A stretch of DNA of 64,000 bases, from positions 101,854-165,853 of the forward strand of contig JACKGQ010000001.1 of NCBI GenBank assembly GCA_020631905.1, given 5' to 3'. Origin of the DNA: Candidatus Nomurabacteria bacterium. Lineage in GTDB: Bacteria; Patescibacteriota; Saccharimonadia; Saccharimonadales; VXPC01. Positions within the stretch are counted from its first letter, which is position 1. Every line of letters begins with the position of its first letter. The notes beneath the pieces are model-generated. The model worked only from the letters and a program-made list of their open reading frames with translations, was not told the DNA's origin and made no database searches. A program made the position numbers and the translations under genes. Of the stretch, positions 12,522 to 59,874 are shown piece after piece.

Positions 12522-13199
12522 GTGAGACTACTAATAGCCGAAGACGATATCAAGATTGCTCGCAGCCTTAAACGAGGCTTGCAAGAAGAGGGTTTTGCGG
12601 TTGATGTAGTTCACGATGGAGATGCAGCGATAATCGAAGCGTCGAACGAACCATACGATGCAATTGTCCTCGACTGGATGATGCCCGAAAAAGACGGCCC
12701 GACCGTTATCCGGGAGCTACGAGACCAGTCGATCACAACTCCAATTATCATGCTAACTGCCCGCGACTCTACGAAAGATAGAGTTAGTGGCCTCAACACA
12801 GGCGCCGACGATTACTTAATAAAGCCATTTTCTTTCGAAGAGTTACTAGCTCGCATACGTGCCCTGCTGCGCCGTCCGAGCCAGAGTTTAAATCAAGAAT
12901 TAAAGTATGGCGATATTACTCTCGAACCAGATAAGTTTGCAGTCCACCGCGCTGGCCAACTGGTCGAGTTATCTCGACGTGAGTTCTCGTTGCTCGAAGT
13001 ATTTATGAGAAATCCCGAAATATTACTTTCCAAAGACCAAATAATTTCGAAAGTCTGGCCATTCGACGCCGATGTGTTGCCGAACACTGTAGAGGTACAC
13101 ATTAAATCGCTACGCCAAAAACTCGATAAACCTTTCGGTAAAGATAGTATCAAGACAGTCCGTGGTTTTGGCTATAAATTAGAGATCGATAATGTTTAG
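12522..13199 (+). CDS. OmpR/PhoB-family response regulator
   Basis: Receiver domain (VRLLIAEDD...DAIVLDWMMPEKDG...LTARD...KPF) plus winged-helix domain (LTLEP...REFSLLEVFM...VRGFGYKL). GTG 12522 is preferred because it matches the conserved N-terminus. TATAAT lies at 12510-12515. Confidence 0.9.
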   Translation: MRLLIAEDDIKIARSLKRGLQEEGFAVDVVHDGDAAIIEASNEPYDAIVLDWMMPEKDGPTVIRELRDQSITTPIIMLTARDSTKDRVSGLNTGADDYLIKPFSFEELLARIRALLRRPSQSLNQELKYGDITLEPDKFAVHRAGQLVELSRREFSLLEVFMRNPEILLSKDQIISKVWPFDADVLPNTVEVHIKSLRQKLDKPFGKDSIKTVRGFGYKLEIDNV

Positions 13200-14187
13200 A
13201 TCGGCTGTCTTAAAATTAACTTTGTTCTACTTTTCGATTCTGCTTGCAGTGGTTCTGTTCCTTAGCTTCAACTGGTATCGGGTTGCTATCCGCGAGATCG
13301 ATCGAGTCGACAGCGCCTTGCAGGGTAACGAGATTGTTTTAAGACGCCGAGGCAATATATTTTCGGACGACCTAGAAGAGGTGGTAACTACAAGACAGCA
13401 AGCTATCGAGATAAGTAAGCACGAAATTAAAACCGAGATACTTACCATAAATGCGTTTCTGCTAAGTGCCGGGGGTCTAGGCGCATATTTGCTTGCTTGG
13501 AGAACTTTAGAGCCTATCGAAAATAGCCATAAGGCTCTAGAAAGATTCACGAGTGATGCTAGTCACGAACTCCGCACACCGCTAACTGCGATGCAAATCG
13601 AAATCGAGACTACTTTGCGTAGCAAGCACTCAGATAAAGCGGAGTTAGCCGAACTTGTCGCGAGCAACCTAGAAGAAGTCAAACATATGACTAGTTTAGT
13701 CGAGAACTTACTGCTTCTCACGCGCAATCAGGCTTTGATTTTAGAAGATAGTCGTACCGACAACTTGGCAAATAAAGCCCTACAAGACACAAAATCTGCG
13801 CGGCAAGCAAAAAAAATTAGCGTAACAAAAGCTATTGATAGCGCCAGAGTTCATGTCAACTCTCCGAGCGTGATTCAGATCTTAACAATCTTACTCGATA
13901 ACGCGATTAAGTACTCCCCCGAAGGCAGTAAAATCGAATTGGCTGGTAAAGCCAAAGGTAGAAATTATACATTTACAGTCACCGACCAAGGTTCGGGAAT
14001 TGCCAAAGCCGAGCAGTCAAAGATTTTTGAGAGATTCTTCCGTGCCGAAAGCTCCCGAACCAGCTATGGTTTTGGCCTAGGGCTGAGCATTGCTCAGAAA
14101 CTCGCCGAACAGAACCATGGCGAGCTCAAACTAACTAAAACCGGTCCAGCAGGAACAAGCTTCTGCTTGCAGATTCCTCTTGCCTAG
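13192..14187 (+). CDS. Sensor histidine kinase (HisKA + HATPase_c)
   Basis: Two TM segments, the H-box FTSDASHELRTPLT, the N-box LLDNAIKYSP, and the G-boxes DQGSGI and GFGLGLSIA. It overlaps the regulator by 8 nt. Confidence 0.9.
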   Translation: MFRSAVLKLTLFYFSILLAVVLFLSFNWYRVAIREIDRVDSALQGNEIVLRRRGNIFSDDLEEVVTTRQQAIEISKHEIKTEILTINAFLLSAGGLGAYLLAWRTLEPIENSHKALERFTSDASHELRTPLTAMQIEIETTLRSKHSDKAELAELVASNLEEVKHMTSLVENLLLLTRNQALILEDSRTDNLANKALQDTKSARQAKKISVTKAIDSARVHVNSPSVIQILTILLDNAIKYSPEGSKIELAGKAKGRNYTFTVTDQGSGIAKAEQSKIFERFFRAESSRTSYGFGLGLSIAQKLAEQNHGELKLTKTGPAGTSFCLQIPLA

Positions 14188-46959: not shown

Positions 46960-47057
46960 TTTAATAATTGCTTGTATCCCGAGTAGATGTTTGCTATTTT
47001 ATGTCGCAGTGAATTTCGATTGGTCATACTATAGGTCACTTATAAAAAGGCATGTAA

Positions 47058-47083
47058 ATCGCCCCAAATGGGGTGATTTTTTT
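47058..47083 (+). terminator. Rho-independent terminator
   Basis: ATCGCCCC-AAAT-GGGGTGAT followed by TTTTTTT. Confidence 0.75.
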
Positions 47084-47229
47084 ATACTGGAGCTTCGTGG
47101 ATAGGCCATATGGCCGAAATCAAAATATATATATTTGTTTGTTTATTCGTAAATATCGATCCCAATCAAAATTGTTATTGGAACCACCCTAAAACAAAAT
47201 AATTTCTTTCAAATTAATAGGAGAATGAA

Positions 47230-48333: not shown

Positions 48334-48588
48334 ATTTGTCGATTTTGGGAATTACACACTACTTAGGAAGAGTTGGCTCCTGGATGAATTGAACAACCTG
48401 GCCTATGGTTACTGTATTTAGGATAGTTTTATATTTTATTGAAAATATCATTTATAAATTTTGGCAATAGCTTATCAGACCCTAAGAGGACGCAGACAGA
48501 AGAGATGTATGGAGGTTATGTAAAAGTGGTTTAGTACCCGCAATCTGGCAATTGCCATCTGGAATAGGGTTAACGCAAAAATATTCCT

Positions 48589-49379: not shown

Positions 49380-49583
49380 TTATTTTTTTAGATATTTTCC
49401 GGCGATGCTCAAGGCAAAGGATGGCAAGATAAGAAATACGCTCGCAAACAACAACCTGATCAAAAAGTGAGTCAACCTTGTGTCTGGCTGATTCGCTCCT
49501 GGGGCAGTTAAAACTATTAACATGCCTGTTACCCCAAAGACTACTGAAGCATATACAAAAACCCGAGTTGCTATTTTCTGCAT
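49380..49583 (-). CDS. Small two-TM membrane protein
   Basis: The start at MQKIATRVFVYASVVFGV (ATG 49583) is preferred. TATAAT (49590-49595, minus strand) lies 6 nt upstream. Confidence 0.45.
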   Translation of the reverse strand: MQKIATRVFVYASVVFGVTGMLIVLTAPGANQPDTRLTHFLIRLLFASVFLILPSFALSIAGKYLKK

Positions 49584-49672
49584 GATTATATTATAACAAA
49601 CCGACTTTACCCTTGCCTCTGGATATCTTGTGGGCCTGAACGCCACACCTAAACCACTCAACTCATCTCTGT

Positions 49673-49885
49673 CTATAGCGGGGCATACATAAGGTTGACA
49701 TTCAGCTCTTCAGCTTCTGGTCTTTGCGCTGCAATTCGTACTAATTCACTATCATCATTTACCAGATCAACAACTCTAGGCCGTAATACGGACAGTAACG
49801 CAAAGATAGAATGATTGACGGTTTCTGGCAGTAGGTGTACATCTGAAATGGCTGCAACTTTGTTCATTTCTAAATTGTAACCCAA
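49673..49885 (-). CDS. Hypothetical small protein
   Basis: 70-aa ORF only, with no motif. Confidence 0.3.
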   Translation of the reverse strand: MGYNLEMNKVAAISDVHLLPETVNHSIFALLSVLRPRVVDLVNDDSELVRIAAQRPEAEELNVNLMYAPL

Positions 49886-50070
49886 AACATAAAAAGAGGC
49901 ATTTCAACTCCGAAAATCTTAGTTATAACCTTGGCTCCCCTTACAGGTCACGGAATCTATACAGGGGTCGCAGGACACAAAACGAGACAAATGAGACACG
50001 AAACGCACTTTTTTAGTTGTCAATTAGCCGTGCATTAATAATCTCTTGATTAGCATTGTATAATAGACGT

Positions 50071-51198: not shown

Positions 51199-51234
51199 AA
51201 CAAACAAAAAAGACCGGTCATAGGAACACGGTCT
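51199..51234 (-). terminator. Rho-independent terminator of the minus-strand metal operon
   Basis: AGACCG-12 nt-CGGTCT followed by TTTTTTGTTTG on the minus strand. Confidence 0.65.
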
Positions 51235-51253
51235 TTATGTGTTGATTTGCATC

Positions 51254-51280
51254 TGGCTCCGAGGGGTGGATTCGAACCAA
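51254..51280 (-). pseudogene. tRNA 3'-end fragment (T-loop, T-stem 3' strand, acceptor 3' strand, CCA)
   Basis: The minus strand reads TTGGTTCGAATCCACCCCTCGGAGCCA. No matching 5' half is present. 23 of the first 26 nt match the tRNA-Asn 3' end at 59507-59532, in the same orientation. Confidence 0.6.
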
Positions 51281-51357
51281 ACGAATATACCACCTTATTT
51301 TTGGCTCGCTTTACCTTAGCTTGCATCTGTTATTTTTCAAACAATTACTTGTAATGG

Positions 51358-51546
51358 CTACTCTTCGTGATCATGTTCGTCGGCATGAGTCTCGGAATCA
51401 CTTTCGTCGCTATGGCTGTCGTTTTCACGGTCATGGTTATGCCCAACTTCTGTAGTTGATTCGATTACTTCACCGTCATGAGCATCGTCACTATGGTCTT
51501 TGCATTTAGATGACACGAATCTGATCGCCTTCTTCAAGCTCTGCAA
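51358..51546 (-). CDS. His/Asp/Glu-rich small ORF (possible metal-binding peptide); start uncertain
   Basis: ...KCKDHSDDAHDGEVIESTTEVGHNHDRENDSHSDESDSETHADEHDHEE. The track start is a TTG with no RBS, and its 5' end overlaps ORF 51506-51622 in another frame. Confidence 0.35.
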   Translation of the reverse strand: MQSLKKAIRFVSSKCKDHSDDAHDGEVIESTTEVGHNHDRENDSHSDESDSETHADEHDHEE

Positions 51547-51622
51547 TGTAGAAATACGGGCTGTATAGACGGGCTACTTTTTCACCGTTGATATACAAGT
51601 GAGCGTGTCCGTGACCAAGCAT
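51506..51622 (-). CDS. Small HxHxH ORF (38 aa)
   Basis: Below the track cutoff. ATG 51622 is preceded by GGAG with a 5-nt spacer. The product is MLGHGHAHLYINGEKVARLYSPYFYIAELEEGDQIRVI. Confidence 0.35.
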   Translation of the reverse strand: MLGHGHAHLYINGEKVARLYSPYFYIAELEEGDQIRVI

Positions 51623-51745
51623 ATTTTCTCCATTCATATCTTAAGACGAAAAAGTAAAAAATTCGCCGTTTCAAGCTCTAGATTCCATCCAGATTTCACA
51701 CCTTTATCAAGACGATCGACATAGCTAGGGCGCAAGAAGATAAGT

Positions 51746-53179
51746 CTAGTGTTTTTTTATACAAACTCCAGCTTGCTCACGAGGTAGGTCATGGTATGAC
51801 CATTCAATAGTTCCGCCTTCAACTGAGTATGCTTCGACATCCTGGTCACGTAACTGCTGTGCAAAAGCAAGAGATGAAACTCCTCGCTGACATACAACAA
51901 ATATTTTTTGATTATACGTGTTAGTGTCGATGTCTGTTTTTGTATCAGTCCATATTGCATATGGAACGTGGAAATGCTCAAACATTTCTCGCGATCGAAT
52001 ATCAAGAATGACAACATTCTTACTTTTCTTGATTTCTTCAATATTGAGATTCTTGATCTGCTCTCTTTCTACTCCGTATGCTTGAGTAATAAAATCATCG
52101 ATAGATAACTCAAGGTCTGAATCAAGATTATCTGGCTGCTCATCCTCAATAAGAAGTAATTCCTCGTTTTCAATTTCAGGAAATTCTTCTTTACCAAGAT
52201 AATAGAAATATTCATCAAAGTATGGAAATGGCGTGTCGCATGCAATGACTACGGCATTAATCACACCTTCTTTGTTGGTTAAGTTATTAAGTGTCCCATC
52301 TTCTTTTTTCTGTTGCAGTATCTTGAAAAGCCCCTGAAGATTAAATCCTGTACTTGGTCCAACCAATAATCCATGACGACAGAGTTTTAGACTTTGAGAA
52401 TATGATTCAACTGTTCCAACTTCAATAAGTTCATCAGAGACATCTTGCCAATCAAAAGCTATTTCATCCAAGAGATTCCGTGTCCGAGGTCCTGGAACAG
52501 GATTGTTCTTTGAACGTACCACACCGATAGTTTGAATTTTTGGATTCTGTTCTTTCAGAAACGAAGCTGTCCCCACCATGGTACCGGTGGTCCCAAGCCC
52601 AGCACAAAACATTTGAATATCACCCTTGGTCTGTTTCCAAATTTGTTGACCAGTGATTTCTGCATGAATATTTGGATTATCAATATTGTCGTACTGACCA
52701 GGATTAAAGAGTTCATCTTGTTCTTCTGCCCATTTCTTTGCCTTAAAAATACCACTCGTTGGATCACTCGGATCGGGGCAAATTGGTTCTTCGTTAATAA
52801 TTGGCTTCACACCAAAAAATTGAAGGAGTTTTAGTTTTCCTTTACTAATTTGATGAGATGCTACTGCTTTTGTGGCCGGAACTCCAAAGAGCTTACCTAA
52901 GATAGCCAAAGAATACACTGTGTTCCCAGAAGAGTTTTCAACCAAAGTTTCAACTCCTTTCAATTTTTGAGATTTATATGCTTGTTCAAGCATATTCCAT
53001 GCAGGAAGTGATTTTACGTTTGCTAGGGGTGTCGTCGACATCATTTTCATATGGATCCGTACACCGTCATCATAGAACGGATTTAATTCAGGTGGTAATT
53101 CAACCAACGGGGTTACTGCATTATGAGGATTAAGATAGTCATATAATCCTTTCGCTCCTGAATAGACATTACTCTCCAT
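51746..53179 (-). CDS. PLP-dependent cysteine-synthase-fold (PALP) enzyme fused to a C-terminal rhodanese domain
   Basis: PALP motifs include the Lys in PLANVKSLPAW, ENSSGNTVYSLA and CAGLGTTGTMVG. The C-terminal VVILDIRSREMFEHFHVPYAIW...VVCQRGVSSLAFA carries the rhodanese active-site loop CQRGVSS. Confidence 0.7.
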   Translation of the reverse strand: MESNVYSGAKGLYDYLNPHNAVTPLVELPPELNPFYDDGVRIHMKMMSTTPLANVKSLPAWNMLEQAYKSQKLKGVETLVENSSGNTVYSLAILGKLFGVPATKAVASHQISKGKLKLLQFFGVKPIINEEPICPDPSDPTSGIFKAKKWAEEQDELFNPGQYDNIDNPNIHAEITGQQIWKQTKGDIQMFCAGLGTTGTMVGTASFLKEQNPKIQTIGVVRSKNNPVPGPRTRNLLDEIAFDWQDVSDELIEVGTVESYSQSLKLCRHGLLVGPSTGFNLQGLFKILQQKKEDGTLNNLTNKEGVINAVVIACDTPFPYFDEYFYYLGKEEFPEIENEELLLIEDEQPDNLDSDLELSIDDFITQAYGVEREQIKNLNIEEIKKSKNVVILDIRSREMFEHFHVPYAIWTDTKTDIDTNTYNQKIFVVCQRGVSSLAFAQQLRDQDVEAYSVEGGTIEWSYHDLPREQAGVCIKKH

Positions 53180-54152
53180 ATTTCTCTGCTACAAATGTCT
53201 CAAAATCAAACCCGTCTTGAATTTGATTTGTTAAATCACCAACTCGAGCGACAACGTAATCTTGAGCGATATATTTTTTGTGTAGTTCAACCAGGTGAGT
53301 AAGGCGATCATTATATGAACGTCGATTTTCTTTTAGTCTCTCATTTATCTTTTTTAAAGTATTCTGTGATGTTTGATCAAGAGCTGTTGCATTAAGATCT
53401 TCTCGATCCTTGTCTACATTTCGAATATGACCACTTAGCATTATTGATCCAAGATACTTCTCTTGAGGAACTGTTTCTAGTATAAATTTTTCATCATCAG
53501 TATCTTCAATTTTGTTCCCAACCACGTATAGTTGATCAAAGATACCTGCATGTTTTGCAAGTTCTGTATACTGTTTATACACCGCAACGCTTCGCTTAGT
53601 TGGCTCAATGCTTAATACCAAGATATCAAATTGAGCATGGAGTGAACCTGCAAAAGCATCAACTCCAGCGACCATGTCAGCAATGATATACGCGTTTGAA
53701 TCAATACTGTGAGCAAGAATATTTTCAAGAATCGCAAGACTATTGTGATAACAGCTTTTTCCGATACCGTCAACATCGTAGGCACCGACGATACTTAAGT
53801 ACATACTGTCTTTCTTCCTTGAATATTTTTTAAAAAGCACATTACCGCTATCACTCAAATCAAAATAACCAGAGTCTTCTGTTGGCGGTGTTGTTTTCTT
53901 AATATGTGCAACGGTCTCAATACGAGGGTTTTCCGACTTGATATATTCCTTGATTTCTTTTTGAATATTTCCTGATGAAAGGTGTGGAAGAATTGATAGG
54001 TCTTCAAAATCCAACAAGTCACCAACATGGATATTCATATCAGCATCAAAGAGTGTAATATTTTTTTGCTCTGTCCGCGCAACGTAATGCGCAAAGAGTG
54101 AGGTCAGTGTTGTTTTTCCTGCACCTCCTTTTCCTACAAATGCTATTCTCAT
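53169..54152 (-). CDS. MinD/ParA-superfamily P-loop ATPase, CooC-like (metal-centre maturation type)
   Basis: MRIAFVGKGGAGKTTL has the deviant Walker A. DMVAGVDAF and a GKSCYH motif are also present. It overlaps the downstream PLP gene by 11 nt. GGAAAGGAAAT lies upstream. Confidence 0.65.
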   Translation of the reverse strand: MRIAFVGKGGAGKTTLTSLFAHYVARTEQKNITLFDADMNIHVGDLLDFEDLSILPHLSSGNIQKEIKEYIKSENPRIETVAHIKKTTPPTEDSGYFDLSDSGNVLFKKYSRKKDSMYLSIVGAYDVDGIGKSCYHNSLAILENILAHSIDSNAYIIADMVAGVDAFAGSLHAQFDILVLSIEPTKRSVAVYKQYTELAKHAGIFDQLYVVGNKIEDTDDEKFILETVPQEKYLGSIMLSGHIRNVDKDREDLNATALDQTSQNTLKKINERLKENRRSYNDRLTHLVELHKKYIAQDYVVARVGDLTNQIQDGFDFETFVAEKYGE

Positions 54153-54222
54153 ATTTCCTTTCCGTTTTCAAAACGTAAGTATATATATTCTTGAGAAGAT
54201 GATACATATACTGTAAAATTAC

Positions 54223-54237
54223 TGCAAATAATTTGCA
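54223..54237. promoter_or_regulatory. 7-1-7 palindrome TGCAAAT-A-ATTTGCA, Fur/Zur-box-like operator
   Basis: It is perfect and AT-rich, lies 11 nt downstream of TATACT (54207-54212), and sits between the divergent Fur-family gene and the ATPase/PLP operon. Confidence 0.55.
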
Positions 54238-54251
54238 ATAAGGATGATTTA

Positions 54252-54719
54252 ATGCAAGCTAATCAATTACTACAAGCAAGCTTTGAGCAAGATATGCGGT
54301 CATCAGGGCTGCGGATTACTCATGTGAGGCAAAGACTTTTTGAAGTGCTCGCAAAAACTAATAAACCGCTATCAGTAAAAGAGCTTGTAGAAAAAACAGA
54401 TGAGGCTCATTTCGTTAGTATCTATCGGTCAATCGACGCTCTACATAAGGCAGGCATAATTAAACAGGTACCAAGAGGTTTCAAGAACCTGTACGAACTG
54501 AGCGACACTTATAGGCCACATCATCATCATGCTACCTGTGAAATATGTGGTAAAAGCACTTCAACTCATGATCAAAAACTTGAGAAACTAATGTCGGACC
54601 TTTCTGTCAAAGCGGGGTTTGAGCCCACCAAGCACACATTTGAAATATTCGGGGTGTGCAATCTCTGTCGTATTTCTAGGGTAGCCATACCAAACCAAAA
54701 CCCGAGAAATCAGCAATAG
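54252..54719 (+). CDS. Fur-family metalloregulator (Zur-like by context)
   Basis: RITHVRQRLFEVLAKTNKPLSVKELVEK (winged helix), then HHHHATCEICGKS...CNLC (His cluster plus two CxxC). Confidence 0.7.
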   Translation: MQANQLLQASFEQDMRSSGLRITHVRQRLFEVLAKTNKPLSVKELVEKTDEAHFVSIYRSIDALHKAGIIKQVPRGFKNLYELSDTYRPHHHHATCEICGKSTSTHDQKLEKLMSDLSVKAGFEPTKHTFEIFGVCNLCRISRVAIPNQNPRNQQ

Positions 54720-56106
54720 ATTTTTTACTCTCAGAGTCATATATGATCGTGTGTGTCTGTTCGCATTGTGCGTTAGGGCTTACTTGATCAAACTGACAAT
54801 AATCAGCGTTTAACTGTGCTGACAATAATATTCCATCGTAGCTAGGTGCCAGTTCTCTCAAGGTTTCGCTAGGATAATCGCTCGTAGTCAATTCAATTTT
54901 TGGTTCTTGATCATCCCAGCCTTGCAATGAATAAACGAAGCTTTGTGCCTCTCCCAGTGAATACGAAGTCGAAGCAATATAAATTTTCTTATTTCCAGAC
55001 ACTACCGACTGCACGTAGCCAGCAGTATCTAGCTCGAATGGCGAGACATCTCCCGATGACACATCGTAGAGTGAGAAGTTACTTTGATCTCTAAACAATA
55101 TTCGACTACCGTTCTCATTAAATCCGAATGATGATGTGTGCGATCCAATCAGCACAGGATCGTAGTCGTTGAATGGACTAACTGCATAAAATGTTTGCAT
55201 TTGGTCTTGAATAAGTGCCACCTGACCATCGTTATCCATTTGGATTGAATATGCACGTATGTAATCTCCCTCAGAGTTTGTAAGTGAGCGTGCTTCGCCA
55301 GATTCCAAATTTATCGCCTCAACTCGAGCAGAAAATCTCTCATAGTATTCGGGACTGACGGAATTGTAGTCAGGTGTGACGGTAAACAAGGCAATCTTAC
55401 CTCTTGGACTTAATGTCAGATAATTTAGCCTGCCGCCAAGTAAAAGCTGTTCTTCACGTACTTCTTTGGTTTGCAGATTGATAGTATATAGAGAATCCCT
55501 CTCTTCACCCTTTGTCGCAATTACCACGAAGTCACAATTAGCAGCAAACATAGTTATTTCAGGATTAGAAAATACTATTTCAGGATCATCACCTAGTCTG
55601 GCAATTTTTATATAATCATCTGCATCCTGCGATAAAAACGATTCATCGCTATAGTCAATCCCGTAATTTCTTTCAAGGTATGCATAGGATGGCTGAGCGG
55701 TCTGTATGGTTTTTTGATATATTCCTCTCATTGGTCTGTCAGTCTGATCAAATATGTCAGGTCCCACCTCGATAGTGTACTCAGTATCGTGTTTAAGATT
55801 CTCGAGTAACGTTACTGTAATATTCTGTGCGGTTGTTTGCGAGGTAAACGAAACACTTGGGATAAAGCGTATTTGTGCGGTGTAGTCACCTTCACGCAAC
55901 GGTCTGTCGAAACGTATTGTCATGGTTGAATTTTGAGTAAGTGACTGGAGGCTCGGATCGCTATCGAAATCAACTATCCGTACTCGAGGACCATGGTTAT
56001 AAAGCAAAAAAGATAAACCAACGATTAGTAGAGCTAGTAGAGATGAAATAAGAACGAGCTTACGATAGTACACACTAGTTGGCATAAGGATTCCTTGGTT
56101 GCTCAA
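54676..56106 (-). CDS. Membrane-anchored Ig-like + beta-propeller-like protein
   Basis: TM anchor, an Ig-like N-domain (...MTIRFDRPL...EYTIEVGPDIFD...) and a repetitive beta-strand region. It is the last gene of the permease operon, and its 3' end overlaps the Fur-family gene by 44 nt. Confidence 0.5.
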   Translation of the reverse strand: MSNQGILMPTSVYYRKLVLISSLLALLIVGLSFLLYNHGPRVRIVDFDSDPSLQSLTQNSTMTIRFDRPLREGDYTAQIRFIPSVSFTSQTTAQNITVTLLENLKHDTEYTIEVGPDIFDQTDRPMRGIYQKTIQTAQPSYAYLERNYGIDYSDESFLSQDADDYIKIARLGDDPEIVFSNPEITMFAANCDFVVIATKGEERDSLYTINLQTKEVREEQLLLGGRLNYLTLSPRGKIALFTVTPDYNSVSPEYYERFSARVEAINLESGEARSLTNSEGDYIRAYSIQMDNDGQVALIQDQMQTFYAVSPFNDYDPVLIGSHTSSFGFNENGSRILFRDQSNFSLYDVSSGDVSPFELDTAGYVQSVVSGNKKIYIASTSYSLGEAQSFVYSLQGWDDQEPKIELTTSDYPSETLRELAPSYDGILLSAQLNADYCQFDQVSPNAQCEQTHTIIYDSESKKSIADFSGFGLVWLP

Positions 56107-56812
56107 TTTGCATAGTACTAGTCGGGACGAGTACTAGTATTTCACCTTCTGTAGTTTGTTTCTTTTGAAAAATGCCTTCAACTTCAAGCCATTCGTCTTT
56201 ATCATATTCTGATCGCCAGTTATTAAGCTGCACAGGTATGCCGACTGGCTGAGCGTCTACAGCACAGCACGTTAATACAAACCGAGCGAGCCAGATAGTG
56301 TCATTGCCAAGATTCGCATCATACACAAAACCACTAATCTTAGCTGGTTTATTGGCGTAATATGTTGGGTCTTGGTTGCTTGAGAGAAGTCGTGACCAAT
56401 CTGTAAGTTTCAGTCCTCTAGATGAGCCAGCAAAAAGTGTGTTCAGTGGTTTTGATTCTGAGGTCGATACTAACGATCCTGCGTCGGTAGAACGTTGCGA
56501 GACAGTCGCAGAGGTTAGTGTTCTAGCTGGCAGAAGTACAGCAGCGATAATCACAAGCCCGAGCGGGAGAAAAGTAAGCTTACCGGACTTATGGGAATGG
56601 CTTTCAAGTGAATAGTAGCTATTTAGTACAAGTAGCAACAGTGCTATAGCGGCCATTATTATCGTAAATGCGACATATCGTGGATGAATGTAGAGAGTAA
56701 GCTGCTTCGTGACCCCCAAATAAGCAATATAAGTTGCTGAGATTAATAGTATGACGGTTTGTAGTTGGGATAGCTTAAAACGCATACGACACCACCAGTC
56801 CTGCAAGAGCAC
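56075..56812 (-). CDS. TIGR03943/DUF1980-family two-TM protein (partner of DUF318-type permease)
   Basis: Two N-terminal TM helices and the C-terminal ARFVLTCCAVDAQPVGIPV (CCxxDA motif). MRFKLSQ (56785) may be the true start. Confidence 0.6.
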   Translation of the reverse strand: MLLQDWWCRMRFKLSQLQTVILLISATYIAYLGVTKQLTLYIHPRYVAFTIIMAAIALLLLVLNSYYSLESHSHKSGKLTFLPLGLVIIAAVLLPARTLTSATVSQRSTDAGSLVSTSESKPLNTLFAGSSRGLKLTDWSRLLSSNQDPTYYANKPAKISGFVYDANLGNDTIWLARFVLTCCAVDAQPVGIPVQLNNWRSEYDKDEWLEVEGIFQKKQTTEGEILVLVPTSTMQIEQPRNPYAN

Positions 56813-57833
56813 TCATTAACAATGAAAGTATAGTTATGGTGATTAACAGTTCGTTTTTGAATGTGGTTTTTAGTAAAGCCAACATCTTTATGTCTATCAT
56901 TGGTCCAAATACCAAGAAGCTGACGATTGAACCCGCAGTAAACGTGTTAGCAAATGACAATGCAAAGAACGCATCGACATTGGCACATATGGATACTACG
57001 AACGCCAATAGAAGCATAGCTAGGATAGATAGAATTACATTGCTACCAATACTAACTAAAATGTCCCGTGGAACAAATGATTGAACGACACCCGCAACAA
57101 TAGCACCAAAAGCGAGCATCTTTATCATCGCAAAAGCTTCGTGAGTGAAGTTACTGCTTAGTTTATCTGCTCGATGACGTGTTGTTCTCTCCTGCTTGGT
57201 AGGGGCATCACAAAGTGCGACAAAGTCCATAGTTAGGAAATCTTGCTCTCGTTTCTTTAGTGAAAGAATATACCCAATGATGTTTGCAATGACAAAGGTG
57301 GCTGCCACTCGTGAAACCACAATTGATTGATCATAGCTAAAAGCTGCCCAAGTTGCCCATATCGTAACTGGGTTAATTACAGGAGCAGCTAACAGAAACG
57401 TGACGGCTTCCGATGGCTTCAACCCTTGAATCATAAGGCTCCGCGCGAGAGGTACATTGCCGCATTCACAAACTGGGAATAAGAAACCCATTAGAGATAA
57501 GATTGCTCGTCTGAAGACACCTTTCTTCGGCAATAACTTCTCAAAAGTATGTGCTGGAACGTAGGTATTCACTACAGCTGCCAAGAGCGAGCCAAGCACA
57601 AGAAATGGAAAAGCTTCTACAAAGATACTTAACGAAAGAGTTGCAAAATCTTGCGCTCTGTTAGGAAGTAGTATTTTGTCAAACAAGTAATCAGAAGAAC
57701 TCAAAACGGCTAAGGTTAGAAGAACCACTACCATTGGTAGCACCAGTTTTCTCCCCTGAGTAATCCGCTTGGTTAGACGATTCGAAACCATAACAACATT
57801 GTAGCGAACTTGCTTAACAACGACCATGAACAA
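56775..57833 (-). CDS. DUF318/ArsP-type permease
   Basis: It is polytopic, with FPVCECGNVPLARSL (CxC motif) and an internally repeated topology. The start may be MVSNRL (57791). Confidence 0.6.
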   Translation of the reverse strand: MFMVVVKQVRYNVVMVSNRLTKRITQGRKLVLPMVVVLLTLAVLSSSDYLFDKILLPNRAQDFATLSLSIFVEAFPFLVLGSLLAAVVNTYVPAHTFEKLLPKKGVFRRAILSLMGFLFPVCECGNVPLARSLMIQGLKPSEAVTFLLAAPVINPVTIWATWAAFSYDQSIVVSRVAATFVIANIIGYILSLKKREQDFLTMDFVALCDAPTKQERTTRHRADKLSSNFTHEAFAMIKMLAFGAIVAGVVQSFVPRDILVSIGSNVILSILAMLLLAFVVSICANVDAFFALSFANTFTAGSIVSFLVFGPMIDIKMLALLKTTFKNELLITITILSLLMSALAGLVVSYAF

Positions 57834-57927
57834 AGTCTTAATAGGTCATGGAGCCAGGTTGGGTTTTGGGGTCCTTGGTTGCCTATTGGAAAACATGTTG
57901 CGGTTAGAACTTTTGTAAGGAGTAAAC

Positions 57928-58143
57928 ATGCAAAAACCGCCATTTCTGACGGTTCCAACATTTGTAGCTTGTAATCACTACGGCACATATTTCTCTGAGA
58001 CTCAGGAGTCAAAGGAGGAACCGGTCATGGAACTCGGTCACTCTATTTCACTGCTGGGTCTGGCTCCGGGGACTGGATTACTGGGGTATATTTTGACTAA
58101 CTTTCGCGTATGCAAGCATCCACGGTTTAGTCAAAATATCTGA
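57928..58143 (+). CDS. Questionable small ORF (71 aa) spanning the tRNA-Asn 3'-end copy
   Basis: It has a good RBS (TAAGGAG, 6 nt, ATG) but no motif, and it contains the 19-nt repeat at 58061-58079. Confidence 0.25.
   Translation: MQKPPFLTVPTFVACNHYGTYFSETQESKEEPVMELGHSISLLGLAPGTGLLGYILTNFRVCKHPRFSQNI
58061..58079 (-). repeat. 19-nt exact copy of the tRNA-Asn 3' end (att-like)
   Basis: TGGCTCCGGGGACTGGATT is identical to 59507-59525, in the same orientation, 1446 bp away. Confidence 0.85.
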
Positions 58144-58200
58144 ACCAGCGACTTGCATCAGCTAAAGCTGCTGCGTCGCTGAACCGAACCAACTCCCTGA

Positions 58201-58232
58201 ATCAAAATGAAAAGACCACCGCGAGGGTGGTC
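58201..58232 (-). terminator. Rho-independent terminator
   Basis: GACCACC-ctcgc-GGTGGTC followed by TTTTCATTTT on the minus strand. Confidence 0.65.
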
Positions 58233-58321
58233 ATCTCATTTTGGCTCACAACAATAGAGGAAGTTATAACTGCGATTAAGAGGGATATGGCAATATCATA
58301 AAAAAAGTCAGTACTTAAGAA

Positions 58322-58996
58322 TTATGCAAGCAGGGTTTCTTGATCGCCGTTTATAACAATCGCTTCACCGTCACGCAGTGTTTTGTAAGGAATATTATTT
58401 GTCTTAAAGTATTCTACGCACTTTTCAATATCTTGGGATTCTGGGTGGTCTGACCTGTAGTGTGGTGCTACAGCATAATCTAATAAGCCAAGTCCACTCC
58501 AAATCACCTCTTTATCGTAGCCTTCTGCAATTTCGTCTTTAGGATCAACGAGCTCAATGCCTCGTAATGAAGGTGCTAATACACAAACACCAGCGCTGAA
58601 ACCACCATAAGCAATCTTATCTTTTTTAAGCATTTCGACTATCAAGTTATCGAACCCGCTCTGCTTGTACGCTTTTCTGAGTATGAATACATTACCACCC
58701 CTTACCCAAATGTACCCATAATCATTCAACTTGTCGGCAAGCTCGGCAGTCTTTCCAAAATAATCACGTAAATCTAATTCTTCTGGCTGCAACCCTAAAG
58801 CTGTCAGGCTTTCGATTTCTTGTTGCACACGTTCCGTACGACTTTCAACTGACTTAGAATCTTGTGCGTTAGCAATAATTGCCGTTCGCTTGTTGTCACC
58901 AATTAAAGTCAGCATTTCTTCTGGCTTGTTACCCAGCTTATATGAAGATAAATAAAGTCTCATAGGTATTATTTTAACATCTGTGAGTCCCGTCAA
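58322..58996 (-). CDS. Peptidase S51 (dipeptidase E-like) / class-I amidotransferase-fold protein
   Basis: ...AIIANAQD...IWVRGGNVFILRKAYKQSGFD...YGGFSAGVCVLAPSL is the nucleophile-elbow Ser context typical of S51. Confidence 0.65.
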   Translation of the reverse strand: MTGLTDVKIIPMRLYLSSYKLGNKPEEMLTLIGDNKRTAIIANAQDSKSVESRTERVQQEIESLTALGLQPEELDLRDYFGKTAELADKLNDYGYIWVRGGNVFILRKAYKQSGFDNLIVEMLKKDKIAYGGFSAGVCVLAPSLRGIELVDPKDEIAEGYDKEVIWSGLGLLDYAVAPHYRSDHPESQDIEKCVEYFKTNNIPYKTLRDGEAIVINGDQETLLA

Positions 58997-59026
58997 TTAT
59001 TTTCGAATTCAACTCTACTCAGGGCA

Positions 59027-59062
59027 CACAAAAAAGTCAGAACCGATATAGCAGTTCTGACT
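59027..59062 (-). terminator. Rho-independent terminator
   Basis: AGTCAGAAC-10 nt-GTTCTGACT followed by TTTTTGTGT on the minus strand. Confidence 0.65.
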
Positions 59063-59106
59063 TAGTCTGTTCCAGTTTGGCTCTCCCTAGTGGACGTACT
59101 TCGCAA

Positions 59107-59466
59107 CTATGATGTTAAATATTCTTCCCATGTATCAAAATTAGATATGCAAAATTTAGCTACACTCGCCGCGTGAGCAAGGGCATATTCGTCGTCGAGA
59201 AATCTCCTCCCATGCTTATCTCTACGCTCAGATGCAATTTCTTTAAGCTGACCTACTAGCTCTGCGTCGGATGGTACTGGTTCACCGTACAATACAACCC
59301 CAGCCGCAAGCATTTCGCCAATATCTCTAGCTACCAGGTCATAAGCATCGCCTACTATTTGACGATGTAAGTCTGTGAATGGTGTTTGGACGCTGTGTGC
59401 CAGCCATGCAAGTCTTTCGTCAGGATCTGATCTAAGTAACTCAATATAATCATCCGGGGAACACAT
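59107..59466 (-). CDS. Hypothetical protein
   Basis: 119-aa acidic ORF with no motif. Confidence 0.45.
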   Translation of the reverse strand: MCSPDDYIELLRSDPDERLAWLAHSVQTPFTDLHRQIVGDAYDLVARDIGEMLAAGVVLYGEPVPSDAELVGQLKEIASERRDKHGRRFLDDEYALAHAASVAKFCISNFDTWEEYLTS

Positions 59467-59506
59467 AAAACTAAAAATACCACATTAGTGTTGTATAGTC
59501 AAAACT

Positions 59507-59581
59507 TGGCTCCGGGGACTGGATTCGAACCAGCGACCTAGTGGTTAACAGCCACCCGCTCTACCGCTGAGCTACCCCGGA
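59507..59581 (-). tRNA. tRNA-Asn (GTT)
   Basis: 75-nt cloverleaf. Acceptor TCCGGGG/CCCCGGA, D arm GCTC-AGCGGTA-GAGC, anticodon loop CTGTTAA, T arm GCTGG-TTCGAAT-CCAGT, discriminator G, encoded CCA. Confidence 0.9.
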
Positions 59582-59823
59582 ATAAATTGTTTAACGTACT
59601 CTCGACCCTTTGCAGATTTTAGAGATCTCTCTCGTTGAATCGCTTCAGAACGAGTGGTAAATGATTCCTTATAAATCAACTCCCATTCGCCCTCAAACTT
59701 AGAAGTAAAGCTTTTTGTTTTGTGTTTATTATTATGCGCTAGCAACCTAGCCTTAATGTTCTGAGTTTGACCTATATATATCTTACTCGCGATCTTATTA
59801 AAGATTACATAAACATAAAACAC
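59572..59823 (-). CDS. Small GIY-YIG (URI-domain, COG2827-like) nuclease
   Basis: FYVYVIFNKIASKIYIGQTQNIKARLLAHNN...ELIYKESFTTRSEAIQRERSLKS has the GIY/YIG, R and E motifs. The GTG start lies 6 nt after TGTATAAT. The last codons and the TAG stop lie inside tRNA-Asn nt 1-10. Confidence 0.8.
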   Translation of the reverse strand: MFYVYVIFNKIASKIYIGQTQNIKARLLAHNNKHKTKSFTSKFEGEWELIYKESFTTRSEAIQRERSLKSAKGREYVKQFIPG

Positions 59824-59860
59824 GTTCTTATTATACAGACACCCTCCGCCAGCTGGCGGA

Positions 59861-59874
59861 TGAGCTACCCCGGA
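59861..59874 (-). repeat. 14-nt exact copy of the tRNA-Asn 5' end
   Basis: TGAGCTACCCCGGA is identical to 59568-59581 (tRNA nt 1-14 on the minus strand) and lies 293 bp upstream of the tRNA. It is followed on the minus strand by the 16-bp palindrome TCCGCCAGCTGGCGGA (59845-59860). Confidence 0.85.

Follow-up and report, generated by a model that had tools for sequence, protein, structure and literature searches.

Behind the asparagine tRNA gene (tRNA-Asn) of a Candidatus Saccharibacteria genome, copies of the 3' end of that tRNA recur on one strand and divide the following DNA into small packets of genes; this array was analysed within a stretch of 64,000 nt (contig JACKGQ010000001.1), hereafter the window, to which all coordinates refer. 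The array is anchored by an intact, intron-less tRNA-Asn(GUU) gene with an encoded CCA on the minus strand at 59507-59581, called by ARAGORN and matched by the Rfam tRNA model at 70.5 bits. Its 3'-terminal 19 nt, TGGCTCCGGGGACTGGATT, have an exact copy at 58061-58079 and one with 3 mismatches at 51254-51272, both on the tRNA strand (23 identities over 26 aligned nt in the latter case); the three matches to this 19-mer in the window compare with 0.01 expected, and at least three were reached in 0 of 100 shuffles. An earlier sequence-only reading had proposed that the intervals so delimited are a 1.4-kb islet and a 6.8-kb imported metal-homeostasis island, serially integrated at the tRNA. The tRNA end at 59507 and its exact copy (ARAGORN, Rfam, and match counts), the 23-of-26 alignment, the gene content of the blocks (S51 and an orphan; PALP-rhodanese, CbiA/CooC-like, Fur, Big_5, DUF1980, and ArsP_1), and the lack of an integrase open reading frame (ORF) among the 20 larger ORFs scanned at 47.2-63.0 kb are all borne out here. 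Three independent assemblies are identical base for base across the repeat junctions, and the metagenome-assembled genome (MAG) GCA_020428525.1 is 99.9% identical to the window over the covered parts; proteins encoded in the window are 100% identical to entries from a 770-kb contig. Contig ends of the MAG and of two same-species Logan assemblies cluster in a span of ~150 nt around one of the repeats (57957-58107) and also fall inside the tRNA (59540-59560); heterogeneity of the population at these junctions, or repeats that co-occurring Saccharibacteria have in common with this species, could be the cause.

The core GAGCCA occurs nine times on the tRNA strand between 48.3 and 59.6 kb, against 3.0 expected, and seven of the nine occurrences are intergenic. 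Read in the tRNA direction, the intergenic sequences that end in this core lie at 59507 (the tRNA itself), 59078, 58242, 58061, 51254, 49932, and perhaps 48374. All copies stand downstream of tRNA-Asn on its strand, with the intact tRNA at one end, and they divide ~11 kb into packets that carry, in turn, orf119; the S51 peptidase; a permease-Fur-CooC-PALP group; a HEAT and Zn-ribbon pair; and orf70, orf93, and a NUDIX gene. Modules with att-like flanks, in which no integrase was found, stand in tandem at one site (seven cores). The boundary sequences belong to at least four families, namely a 42-nt-type tRNA 3'-half relic, a repeat termed T3, a folded tRNA-like element (TLE), and an element termed T2.

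Nearest the tRNA stands the orphan orf119 (119 aa; 59107-59466, minus strand), which matched no Pfam, PHROG, or NCBIfam family and returned nothing in tblastn searches against phage records. Between it and the next gene lies a tRNA 3'-half relic (59030-59094, minus strand; recognised by alignment to loci L070 and L193), in which CCACTAGG-GAGAGCCA, with the T-arm deleted (59078-59094), is followed by a flank termed F4 and a terminator, AAGTCAGAAC...GTTCTGACTTTTT (59034-59063). The next gene encodes a PepE-like S51 peptidase (58322-58996, minus strand; Pfam PF03575, E = 6e-20; NCBIfam PepE below cutoff), and the distal boundary of its cassette is the T3 repeat, ~55 nt long (58242-58296, minus strand), which ends in ...GTTATAACTTCCTCTATTGTTGTGAGCCA and whose 3' end reads GTGAGCCA. 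A bidirectional intrinsic terminator follows (58203-58241, minus strand), of the same style as the terminator found right behind tRNA-Asn in islet-free species. The 1.4-kb block that had been read as a single islet is thus two single-gene cassettes with boundaries of their own at 59078 (orf119) and 58242 (S51). The stretch that holds both genes (58301-59506, 1.2 kb) is not distinctive in guanine-plus-cytosine (GC) content (41.1%, z = -1.4), and an origin of orf119 and S51 as phage genes was rejected, as neither has a PHROG match.

For comparison, one genome per GTDB species was scanned with the 3' 34-mer of tRNA-Asn, giving 120 loci (L070-L189), nearly all of them from Saccharibacteria. Extra copies of the tRNA 3' end were found in 24 of the 120, in every case downstream and on the same strand, with none upstream or inverted; T3, T2, and the TLE each stand behind tRNA-Asn in 7-22 other sampled Saccharibacteria loci, again always downstream and on the tRNA strand. 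T3 recurs in 10 other GTDB loci as well as in L193, the nearest relative found, and among the 11 GTDB loci (window included) it accompanies different cargo each time. Its sequence is conserved, no consensus fold was detected in it, and its interpretation as a tiny ORF is unsupported, the variable positions being non-synonymous in our own reading of the sequences. The clearest example of a cassette array is L148, where the TLE and then three T3-bounded packets stand in tandem from +177 to +4877 after tRNA-Asn. Segments enclosed in this manner elsewhere carry Fic/DOC, ParE-like, metallophosphoesterase-like, HAD-like, 133-aa restriction-enzyme-like, DUF262-like, and ClpB-like genes along with several unplaceable ORFs, these labels having been assigned by reading ORF translations.

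The cargo of the window was not found beside tRNA-Asn in any of the other loci; across the 120, orf119 is present in none and S51 has only one distant homologue, 3.5 kb away. The relic at 59078 together with F4 is 46/53 identical to the tRNA-Asn 3' end and flank of L070 and 43/55 identical to those of L193, and F4, which follows the relic in the window, directly follows the tRNA in L070, L071, L174, and L193. Because the flanks beyond the relics match the flanks of intact tRNA-Asn elsewhere, and because the cargo is absent there, orf119 and S51 are, by this comparison, insertions between the tRNA and sequences that formerly abutted it. The same exchange of neighbours is seen in three further flank families (F1, F2, and F3), each of which stands behind intact tRNA-Asn in some species and behind the TLE, T2, or T3 in others. 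In the window, F3 is a conserved non-coding stretch of ~230 nt directly after the TLE (57834-58060, minus strand; GACCAAGCA...GACCGnGTTCCnTGACCGG), which over ~225 nt shares 66-67% identity with the DNA directly behind intact tRNA-Asn in L082 (151/224) and L137 (150/228); the alignment scores of 27-64 compare with a shuffle maximum of 16, and the family lies directly behind the tRNA in twelve species. As a module of ~230-270 nt, seen in the first ~270 nt after tRNA-Asn in L165, L188, L083, L082, L137, L150, and L175, F3 contains two copies of ACCAAGCA..GACCGnGTTCCnTGACCGG and a GTTGGAACCG hairpin, with additional T-arm-like pieces (CTGTTAGCGGTTCGAATCCAG) in some species, and it accompanies tRNA-Asn or the TLE whatever gene comes next. 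Since the genes beyond F3 differ between species, F3 is no leader of the permease operon that follows it in the window. Likewise, the membrane-protein-like orf93 (49380-49661, minus strand) lies ~10 kb from the tRNA in the window, whereas its homologue is the gene right after tRNA-Asn in L180 (+40 nt) and L117 (+135 nt) and is found at +1276 nt in L174; orf93 is likely, from these positions, the ancestral downstream neighbour of tRNA-Asn, and the interval from 59.5 to 49.7 kb is, on the same comparison, a variable slot.

The exact 19-nt copy at 58061, which had been taken as the scar of the 1.4-kb islet, proved to be the end of a larger structured element older than the islet, the TLE (~140 nt; 58061-58202, minus strand). 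On the tRNA strand this locus reads GTCGCTGGTTC, a 62-nt insert, and AATCCAGTCCCCGGAGCCA, that is, the T-arm of the tRNA split by an insert in the T-loop, with 11 further tRNA bases at 58142-58152, across the insert from the 19-nt copy. The 5' strand of the element is acceptor-like; a long helix, AGCGAC...GTCGCTGGTTC, encloses a covarying inner hairpin; the T-loop position is occupied by an insert with a central hairpin (GATGC/GCAT); and the last part is ATCCAGTCCCCGGAGCCA, the 19-mer of the sequence-only reading. Drawn as a fold, it has an acceptor-like stem; the long helix (AGCGAC...GTCGCTGGTT), whose inner tiers covary; another arm in which a conserved internal loop (CGCAG / CGAGCA) surrounds a covarying hairpin; and a third small hairpin thereafter, the hairpins being capped by GNRA- or GAA-type loops. 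A covariance model (R1), built from 15 copies with a structure derived by hand, matches the window at 58061-58185 (84.9 bits, E = 5e-19) and finds the TLE in 22 other-species Saccharibacteria loci. In an alignment that was fitted to the model, 83% of cells are paired, compensatory changes occur in 26 of 29 pairs, and 116 cells carry double changes, against 36 +/- 5 in shuffles (0/500 reach 116) and 13-40 in slid controls. From a plain MAFFT alignment, RNAalifold gave no structure, so that the hand-derived fold and the covariance model were required. The bias of G.U over A.C pairs (37 vs 23) is weak and not decisive for the strand of action.

Among the 21 TLE loci found by nhmmer, 16 begin 35-43 nt after tRNA-Asn, behind its terminator and with no genes between; in the remaining five (L070, L072, L075, L120, and the window), something lies between tRNA and TLE. 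The element lacks a canonical cloverleaf, with inner hairpin loops of 3-6 nt, an interrupted T-loop, and no anticodon loop; ARAGORN calls neither a tRNA nor a transfer-messenger RNA (tmRNA) there, and the Rfam tRNA model gives no match. No Rfam family matches the TLE, T2, or T3 (E <= 0.1-1), the only Rfam matches being tRNA and, in other species, a group I intron, and the TLE is not mentioned in the literature searched. It is, apparently, an undescribed tRNA-derived structured element, and would be a novel small RNA or else a recombination site of a new type. A role as leader or riboswitch of the permease operon was rejected, since unrelated genes follow the TLE and F3 in other species.

The fragment at 51254, which matches 23 of 26 nt of the tRNA tail, is likewise the end of an element, T2 (~90 nt; 51254-51345, minus strand), of the form TTGAAAAATAACAGATGCAAGCTAAGGTAAAGCGAGCC...GGTGG...TTGGTTCGAATCCACCCCTCGGAGCCA. 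It has homologues in 7 species, 1.1-4.7 kb behind tRNA-Asn (L082, L083, L084, L095, L105, L134, and L175), where it closes segments with Fic, ParE-like, ClpB, or DUF262-like genes. In the window, the three positions at which the T2 copy departs from the tRNA make the 3' strand of the T-stem CCACC, complementary to the conserved upstream GGTGG; T2 of other species also carries a promoter-like box, TTGACA-16-TAAAGT, the first hexamer of which is degraded to TTGAAA in the window. A terminator-like hairpin follows (51205-51253, minus strand; AAAGACCG...CGGTCTTTTTT), with a loop, GTTCCTATGAC, that resembles the F3 motif. Two weaker fragments further out had also been pointed to as possible older events, and they fared differently. 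The decayed third copy (49885-49990, minus strand), in which ...GGGGAGCCA (49932-49940) is joined to an F2 flank, AGGTTATAACTAAGATT, has real homology, the GGAGCCA at 49932 and ~24 nt of flank aligning locally to the TLE end and flank of L181, although covariance model R1 does not match it. The intergenic fragment at 48374-48411 (minus strand; TAACCA-TAGG...CCAGGAGCCA) has a GAGCCA core on the tRNA strand and may be the oldest relic, but its score of 24 is at chance level (1.4 such matches expected per scan), and it was not accepted as a proven relic.

The largest packet holds the genes that had been read as an imported metal island. An operon of an ArsP_1 permease, a TIGR03943/DUF1980 subunit, and a Big_5 protein (54676-57833, minus strand) is followed by a Fur-family regulator (54252-54719, plus strand; Pfam PF01475), which is convergent with the operon, its 3' end overlapping that of Big_5, and divergent from a pair formed by a CbiA/CooC-like ATPase and a PALP-rhodanese enzyme (51746-54152, minus strand); small His/Asp-rich ORFs without family matches lie between PALP and T2 (51358-51637, minus strand). 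The order ArsP_1-DUF1980-Big_5-Fur (opposite strand)-CbiA is kept in three lineages (the window, L193, and L194/L195), with the operon in the same order in all three and the Fur gene in the same position in L193 and L194. In L193 the cluster occupies the same interval, between tRNA-Asn (at the contig end) and a glutaredoxin-Fur-DsrE-DsrC block, inverted relative to the window and with other cassettes and a T3 repeat beside it. The identity between the window and this relative is 72% for ArsP, like that of the flanking core genes (Na/Ca exchanger 70%, DsrC about 80%). As for composition, the block at 51281-58060 is indeed poorer in GC (40.2% vs 44.1 +/- 0.9% in same-size background windows, z = -4.5), but the contrast of 32-40% with about 45% given by the sequence-only reading was overstated; the deficit is due to the CooC-PALP pair (37.8%, z = -4.4), which is also an outlier in tetranucleotide usage and alone among the modules deviates in composition, whereas the permease operon (41.7%, z = -1.9) and the orf119-S51 stretch lie within the background. 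Comparison with relatives sets the packets apart: orf119 and S51 are absent from the site elsewhere, whereas the ArsP-Fur cluster is present in the same interval in L193. On this gene order and identity, the metal cluster is an old occupant of the interval, rearranged in place and mostly ancestral, and not a recent foreign island.

The CooC-PALP pair, which differs from the CbiA and 251-aa pair of L193, may be a later replacement next to T2. Pairs of CbiA/CooC and PALP-rhodanese genes are widespread in Patescibacteria (48-75% identity), standing at other loci in L190, L192, and L196; the two are fused into one protein of 829 aa in P0150, and a Fur-family gene precedes the pair in L196. Such pairs may represent a so far unstudied pathway linked to metals or sulfur. 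Compared with the nearest relative (43.6-47.0 kb and 60.1-60.3 kb; L005 and L193), both the metal cluster and the DsrC-DsrE-Fur-glutaredoxin block have the opposite orientation, and a homologue of orf84 stands beside glutaredoxin in the relative and across tRNA-Asn in the window; by gene order, the neighbourhood has been rearranged several times. Synteny through the Na/Ca exchanger gene revealed no clean empty site, the single-protein contig search returning nothing and the homologue contexts showing rearrangements. Upstream of the amidohydrolase gene, a sub-threshold match to the Rfam Phe leader (46977-47085; 29.6 bits vs a gathering threshold of 55) is probably a terminator-like hairpin.

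The upstream side of the tRNA is also marked by tRNA-derived sequence. A tRNA-Asn 5' pseudo-half (59831-59874, minus strand) begins with an exact 14-nt copy of tRNA positions 1-14 (59861-59874), 293 nt upstream of the tRNA; a palindrome, TCCGCCAGCTGGCGGA, replaces the D-loop (59845-59860) and is followed by GGGTGTCTGTATAA, which resembles an anticodon stem and loop. This layout, with covarying hairpins, is also present in L113, L126, L082, L140, and L190, and in L190 the pseudo-half matches the different tRNA 5' end of that species itself. Between pseudo-half and tRNA lies a GIY-YIG nuclease gene of 83 aa (59572-59823, minus strand; Pfam PF01541, E = 2e-17), with PHROG homing-endonuclease matches and a weak, below-cutoff match to TIGR01453, a family of group I intron endonucleases. 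The final 10 nt of the gene and its TAG stop lie inside the tRNA 5' end, and the same abutment is seen in L113, L126, and L190. Pseudo-half and nuclease gene could together be a homing-endonuclease-type insertion that rebuilt the 5' part of the tRNA, or else a conserved leader. In about 35 of the 120 species, a group I intron interrupts the anticodon loop of tRNA-Asn (RF00028, 89-104 bits; e.g., L072, L073, L126, L159, and L173); at some loci of this type, the 5' exon lies ~550 nt upstream of the 3' half, compared with 230-330 nt. The intron of tRNA-Asn, at position 35/36, is known from a 2026 paper (PMC13011429), in which a term search found no mention of GIY-YIG genes, pseudogenes, or integrases.

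A candidate source of the recombinase comes from outside the window. The IMG/VR phage contig IMGVR_UViG_3300033074_000763 (37 kb; region of interest at 12880-13245 of locus L015) carries, without a full tRNA, a 42-nt exact copy of window positions 59506-59547, spanning the anticodon loop to the CCA plus one base and followed by a terminator. About 120 nt upstream of this copy lies a ~30-aa C-terminal relic of a tyrosine-recombinase-like protein (...RHKKLETTKIYLHA), in a gene-poor gap of 1.3 kb with phage genes on both sides; no intact integrase was found in the 20 kb of the contig examined. The contig, which is siphophage-like, encodes a tape-measure protein, an endolysin, NinB, a resolvase, and methyltransferases, and by appearance it is a once temperate phage of this host lineage whose integrase has been lost. 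Given the 42-nt copy and the adjoining integrase relic, this exact tRNA probably served as an attachment site of the anticodon-loop type for a phage. In the window, the relic at 59078 retains both ends (CCACTAGG...GAGCCA) of the phage 42-nt segment; otherwise, comparison of the window at 47-60.2 kb with 56 viral loci gave no similarity beyond the tRNA piece.

Taken together, these observations suggest, with a probability of roughly 0.55, that the 3' flank of tRNA-Asn is a hotspot of cassette accretion in which recombination takes place at the tRNA tail (core GAGCCA) by means of a recombinase supplied in trans. Recombination would occur at or within the 3'-terminal core of the tRNA, and each packet would be inserted between the tRNA and its former neighbour, older boundaries being pushed outward; the recombinase would act from elsewhere, and at least one phage lineage with a tyrosine integrase would have used this very tRNA as its attachment site. 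The repeats with their families, conservation, and covariation, the insertion of orf119 and S51, and the exchange of flanks are observed; which enzyme acts, where the crossover falls, in what order the events took place, and whether the TLE works as an RNA or a DNA site are what we infer. The earlier idea of serial integration at tRNA-Asn survives in this form, insofar as packets bounded by tail copies in one orientation do accumulate, while its specific islet and island do not. Several findings nevertheless weigh against such accretion. Neither an integrase nor an excisionase or other recombinase gene was found at 46-64 kb of the window, the ORFs scanned with Pfam, PHROGs, or NCBIfam between 47.2 and 63.0 kb having no integrase domain, and no integrase was recognised by eye in ORF translations of eight islets of other species. 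Neither an empty-site nor a circular junction was found, same-species contigs being all collinear with the window and two scans of JGI metagenomes having returned neither the TLE of this species nor an empty-site junction. The attP-like (phage attachment-like) site of the phage comes without the TLE, T2, and T3, and the model search found neither TLE nor T3 in IMG/VR viral contigs, pattern matches there being due to chance; because both are absent from these contigs, no known mobile element carries them. The covariation of the TLE shows selection on a fold, which would not be expected of a passive scar, and the existence of the repeats may therefore have nothing to do with recombination. Relatives show synteny for the ArsP cluster, and this packet at least was therefore, as far as gene order tells, not delivered by recent integration. 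Finally, core and flank are duplicated together in L082 and L085, a pattern as compatible with tandem duplication as with integration.

The account closest to the original proposal, that two or three integrative elements with tRNA-targeting integrases of their own inserted serially, left attL-island-attR footprints, and later lost their integrases by deletion, the 1.4-kb and 6.8-kb blocks being their remains, is unlikely. The direct repeats of the tRNA 3' end do have the right geometry for it, the 6.8-kb block is lower in GC, a phage with a matching 42-nt attP-like site exists, and the relic at 59078 keeps both ends of that segment; yet the 19-mer belongs to the TLE, which is free of any island in 16 loci, the supposed islet is broken by the boundaries at 59078 and 58242, and the metal genes keep their order in three lineages, at core-like identity and in the same interval in the nearest relative. 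Nor are the permease operon and the orf119-S51 stretch compositionally distinct, and the resemblance to the 56 viral loci ends with the tRNA piece. Somewhat less doubtful, and entertained as a tentative alternative, is the view that the TLE, T2, and the 5' pseudo-half are paralogous tRNA-Asn genes or regulatory RNAs under selection (processing signals, decoys, or small RNAs), the packets having arisen through rearrangement or homologous recombination between repeats with no site-specific recombination at all. Strong compensatory covariation with GNRA- or GAA-capped hairpins, the conserved position right after the tRNA terminator, the promoter-like box of T2 (TTGACA-16-TAAAGT), a pseudo-half that tracks the tRNA of its own species (L190), the inversions relative to the nearest relative, and the failure to find a recombinase all speak for it. 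It accounts poorly for T3, which is conserved in sequence without a fold, and for base-precise GAGCCA cassette bounds that abut flanks following intact tRNA elsewhere; the cargo, moreover, is of the accessory, toxin, or defence type known from integration hotspots, and the bias of G.U over A.C is weak (37 vs 23). Chance matches or assembly artefacts, to which the breaks of MAG and Logan contigs near 57957-58107 and inside the tRNA might point, are rejected as wholly improbable, given an expectation of 0.01 matches, base-for-base agreement among three independent assemblies, and the presence of the same elements in dozens of other species.

Beyond cassette accretion as such, we would put forward only as a speculation, and a rather doubtful one, that the TLE, perhaps with T2 and T3, represents an undescribed class of structured elements derived from tRNA-Asn that serve a cassette-capture platform anchored at tRNA-Asn, either as its recombination sites or in the role of RNA guides or markers; such a platform would be integron-like without a resident integrase, would operate in genomes of ~0.8 Mb, and would have its tRNA wrapped on both sides by folded pseudo-halves of itself, the GIY-YIG-linked 5' one included. 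Saccharibacteria are ultra-small episymbionts thought to be poor in mobile DNA, and no description of arrays of this kind in organisms with ~0.8-Mb genomes was found in the literature searched. If a single site does collect and exchange packets of one gene each among many species, it would rank among the main routes of accessory-gene flux in the phylum and be a ready marker for Fic toxins, toxin-antitoxin-like genes, peptidases, other accessory ORFs, and perhaps metal-handling modules. For annotation, the locus teaches that a tRNA-tail repeat beside a gene block is no proof of foreign origin, the largest block here being by all appearances ancestral.

Among known systems, the array shares its single-gene packets in one orientation, each closed at its 3' side by a repeat and anchored at a fixed site, with integrons; the TLE, too, is conserved more in structure than in sequence, and the three T3-bounded packets of L148 stand in tandem. 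Unlike integrons, it has neither IntI nor attI and is anchored at a tRNA gene with a GIY-YIG gene in front; in T3 no fold is detectable, the shape of the TLE is that of a tRNA and not of an imperfect palindrome of the attC kind, and there is no sign here of single-strand recombination. tRNA-like non-coding RNAs include the tRNA-like domain of tmRNA and the tRNA mimics of bacterial Y-RNA (YrlA). With these the TLE has in common an acceptor 3' strand, a discriminator base, a CCA, pieces of the T-arm, and four helices in cloverleaf-like order; it departs from them in lacking an anticodon loop, in carrying an insert of 55-80 nt at the T-loop position, and in its fixed location behind tRNA-Asn.

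Closer parallels are offered by elements that integrate at tRNA genes. Cis-mobilisable elements (CIMEs) without integrases accrete beside integrative and conjugative elements (ICEs) in Streptococcus thermophilus, and their tandem att-flanked segments without an integrase of their own, explained by repeated integration into one att site with the integrase acting in trans, resemble the array described here; a partner ICE or integrase, however, is not known in the present case, and mobilisation is hypothetical. Integration sublocations in tRNA and tmRNA genes were reportedly classified by Williams in 2002. Both the Yersinia high-pathogenicity island and Klebsiella ICEKp1 target asn-tRNA and leave direct repeats of 17 bp. 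As in such tRNA-targeting islands, direct repeats of the tRNA 3' end stand downstream of an intact tRNA, the cargo is variable and accessory, the target is an Asn tRNA, and a phage carries an attP-like copy of 42 nt from the anticodon loop to the CCA end. The array differs from them in that no integrase was found in it or in eight islets of other species, in that the packets are very small, often of one gene, the largest of them being, on gene order, ancestral, and in that the boundary repeats are conserved families, one with a selected fold, rather than plain copies of an att core. In summary, the array is a variant of tRNA-anchored island accretion with an apparently undescribed structured element.

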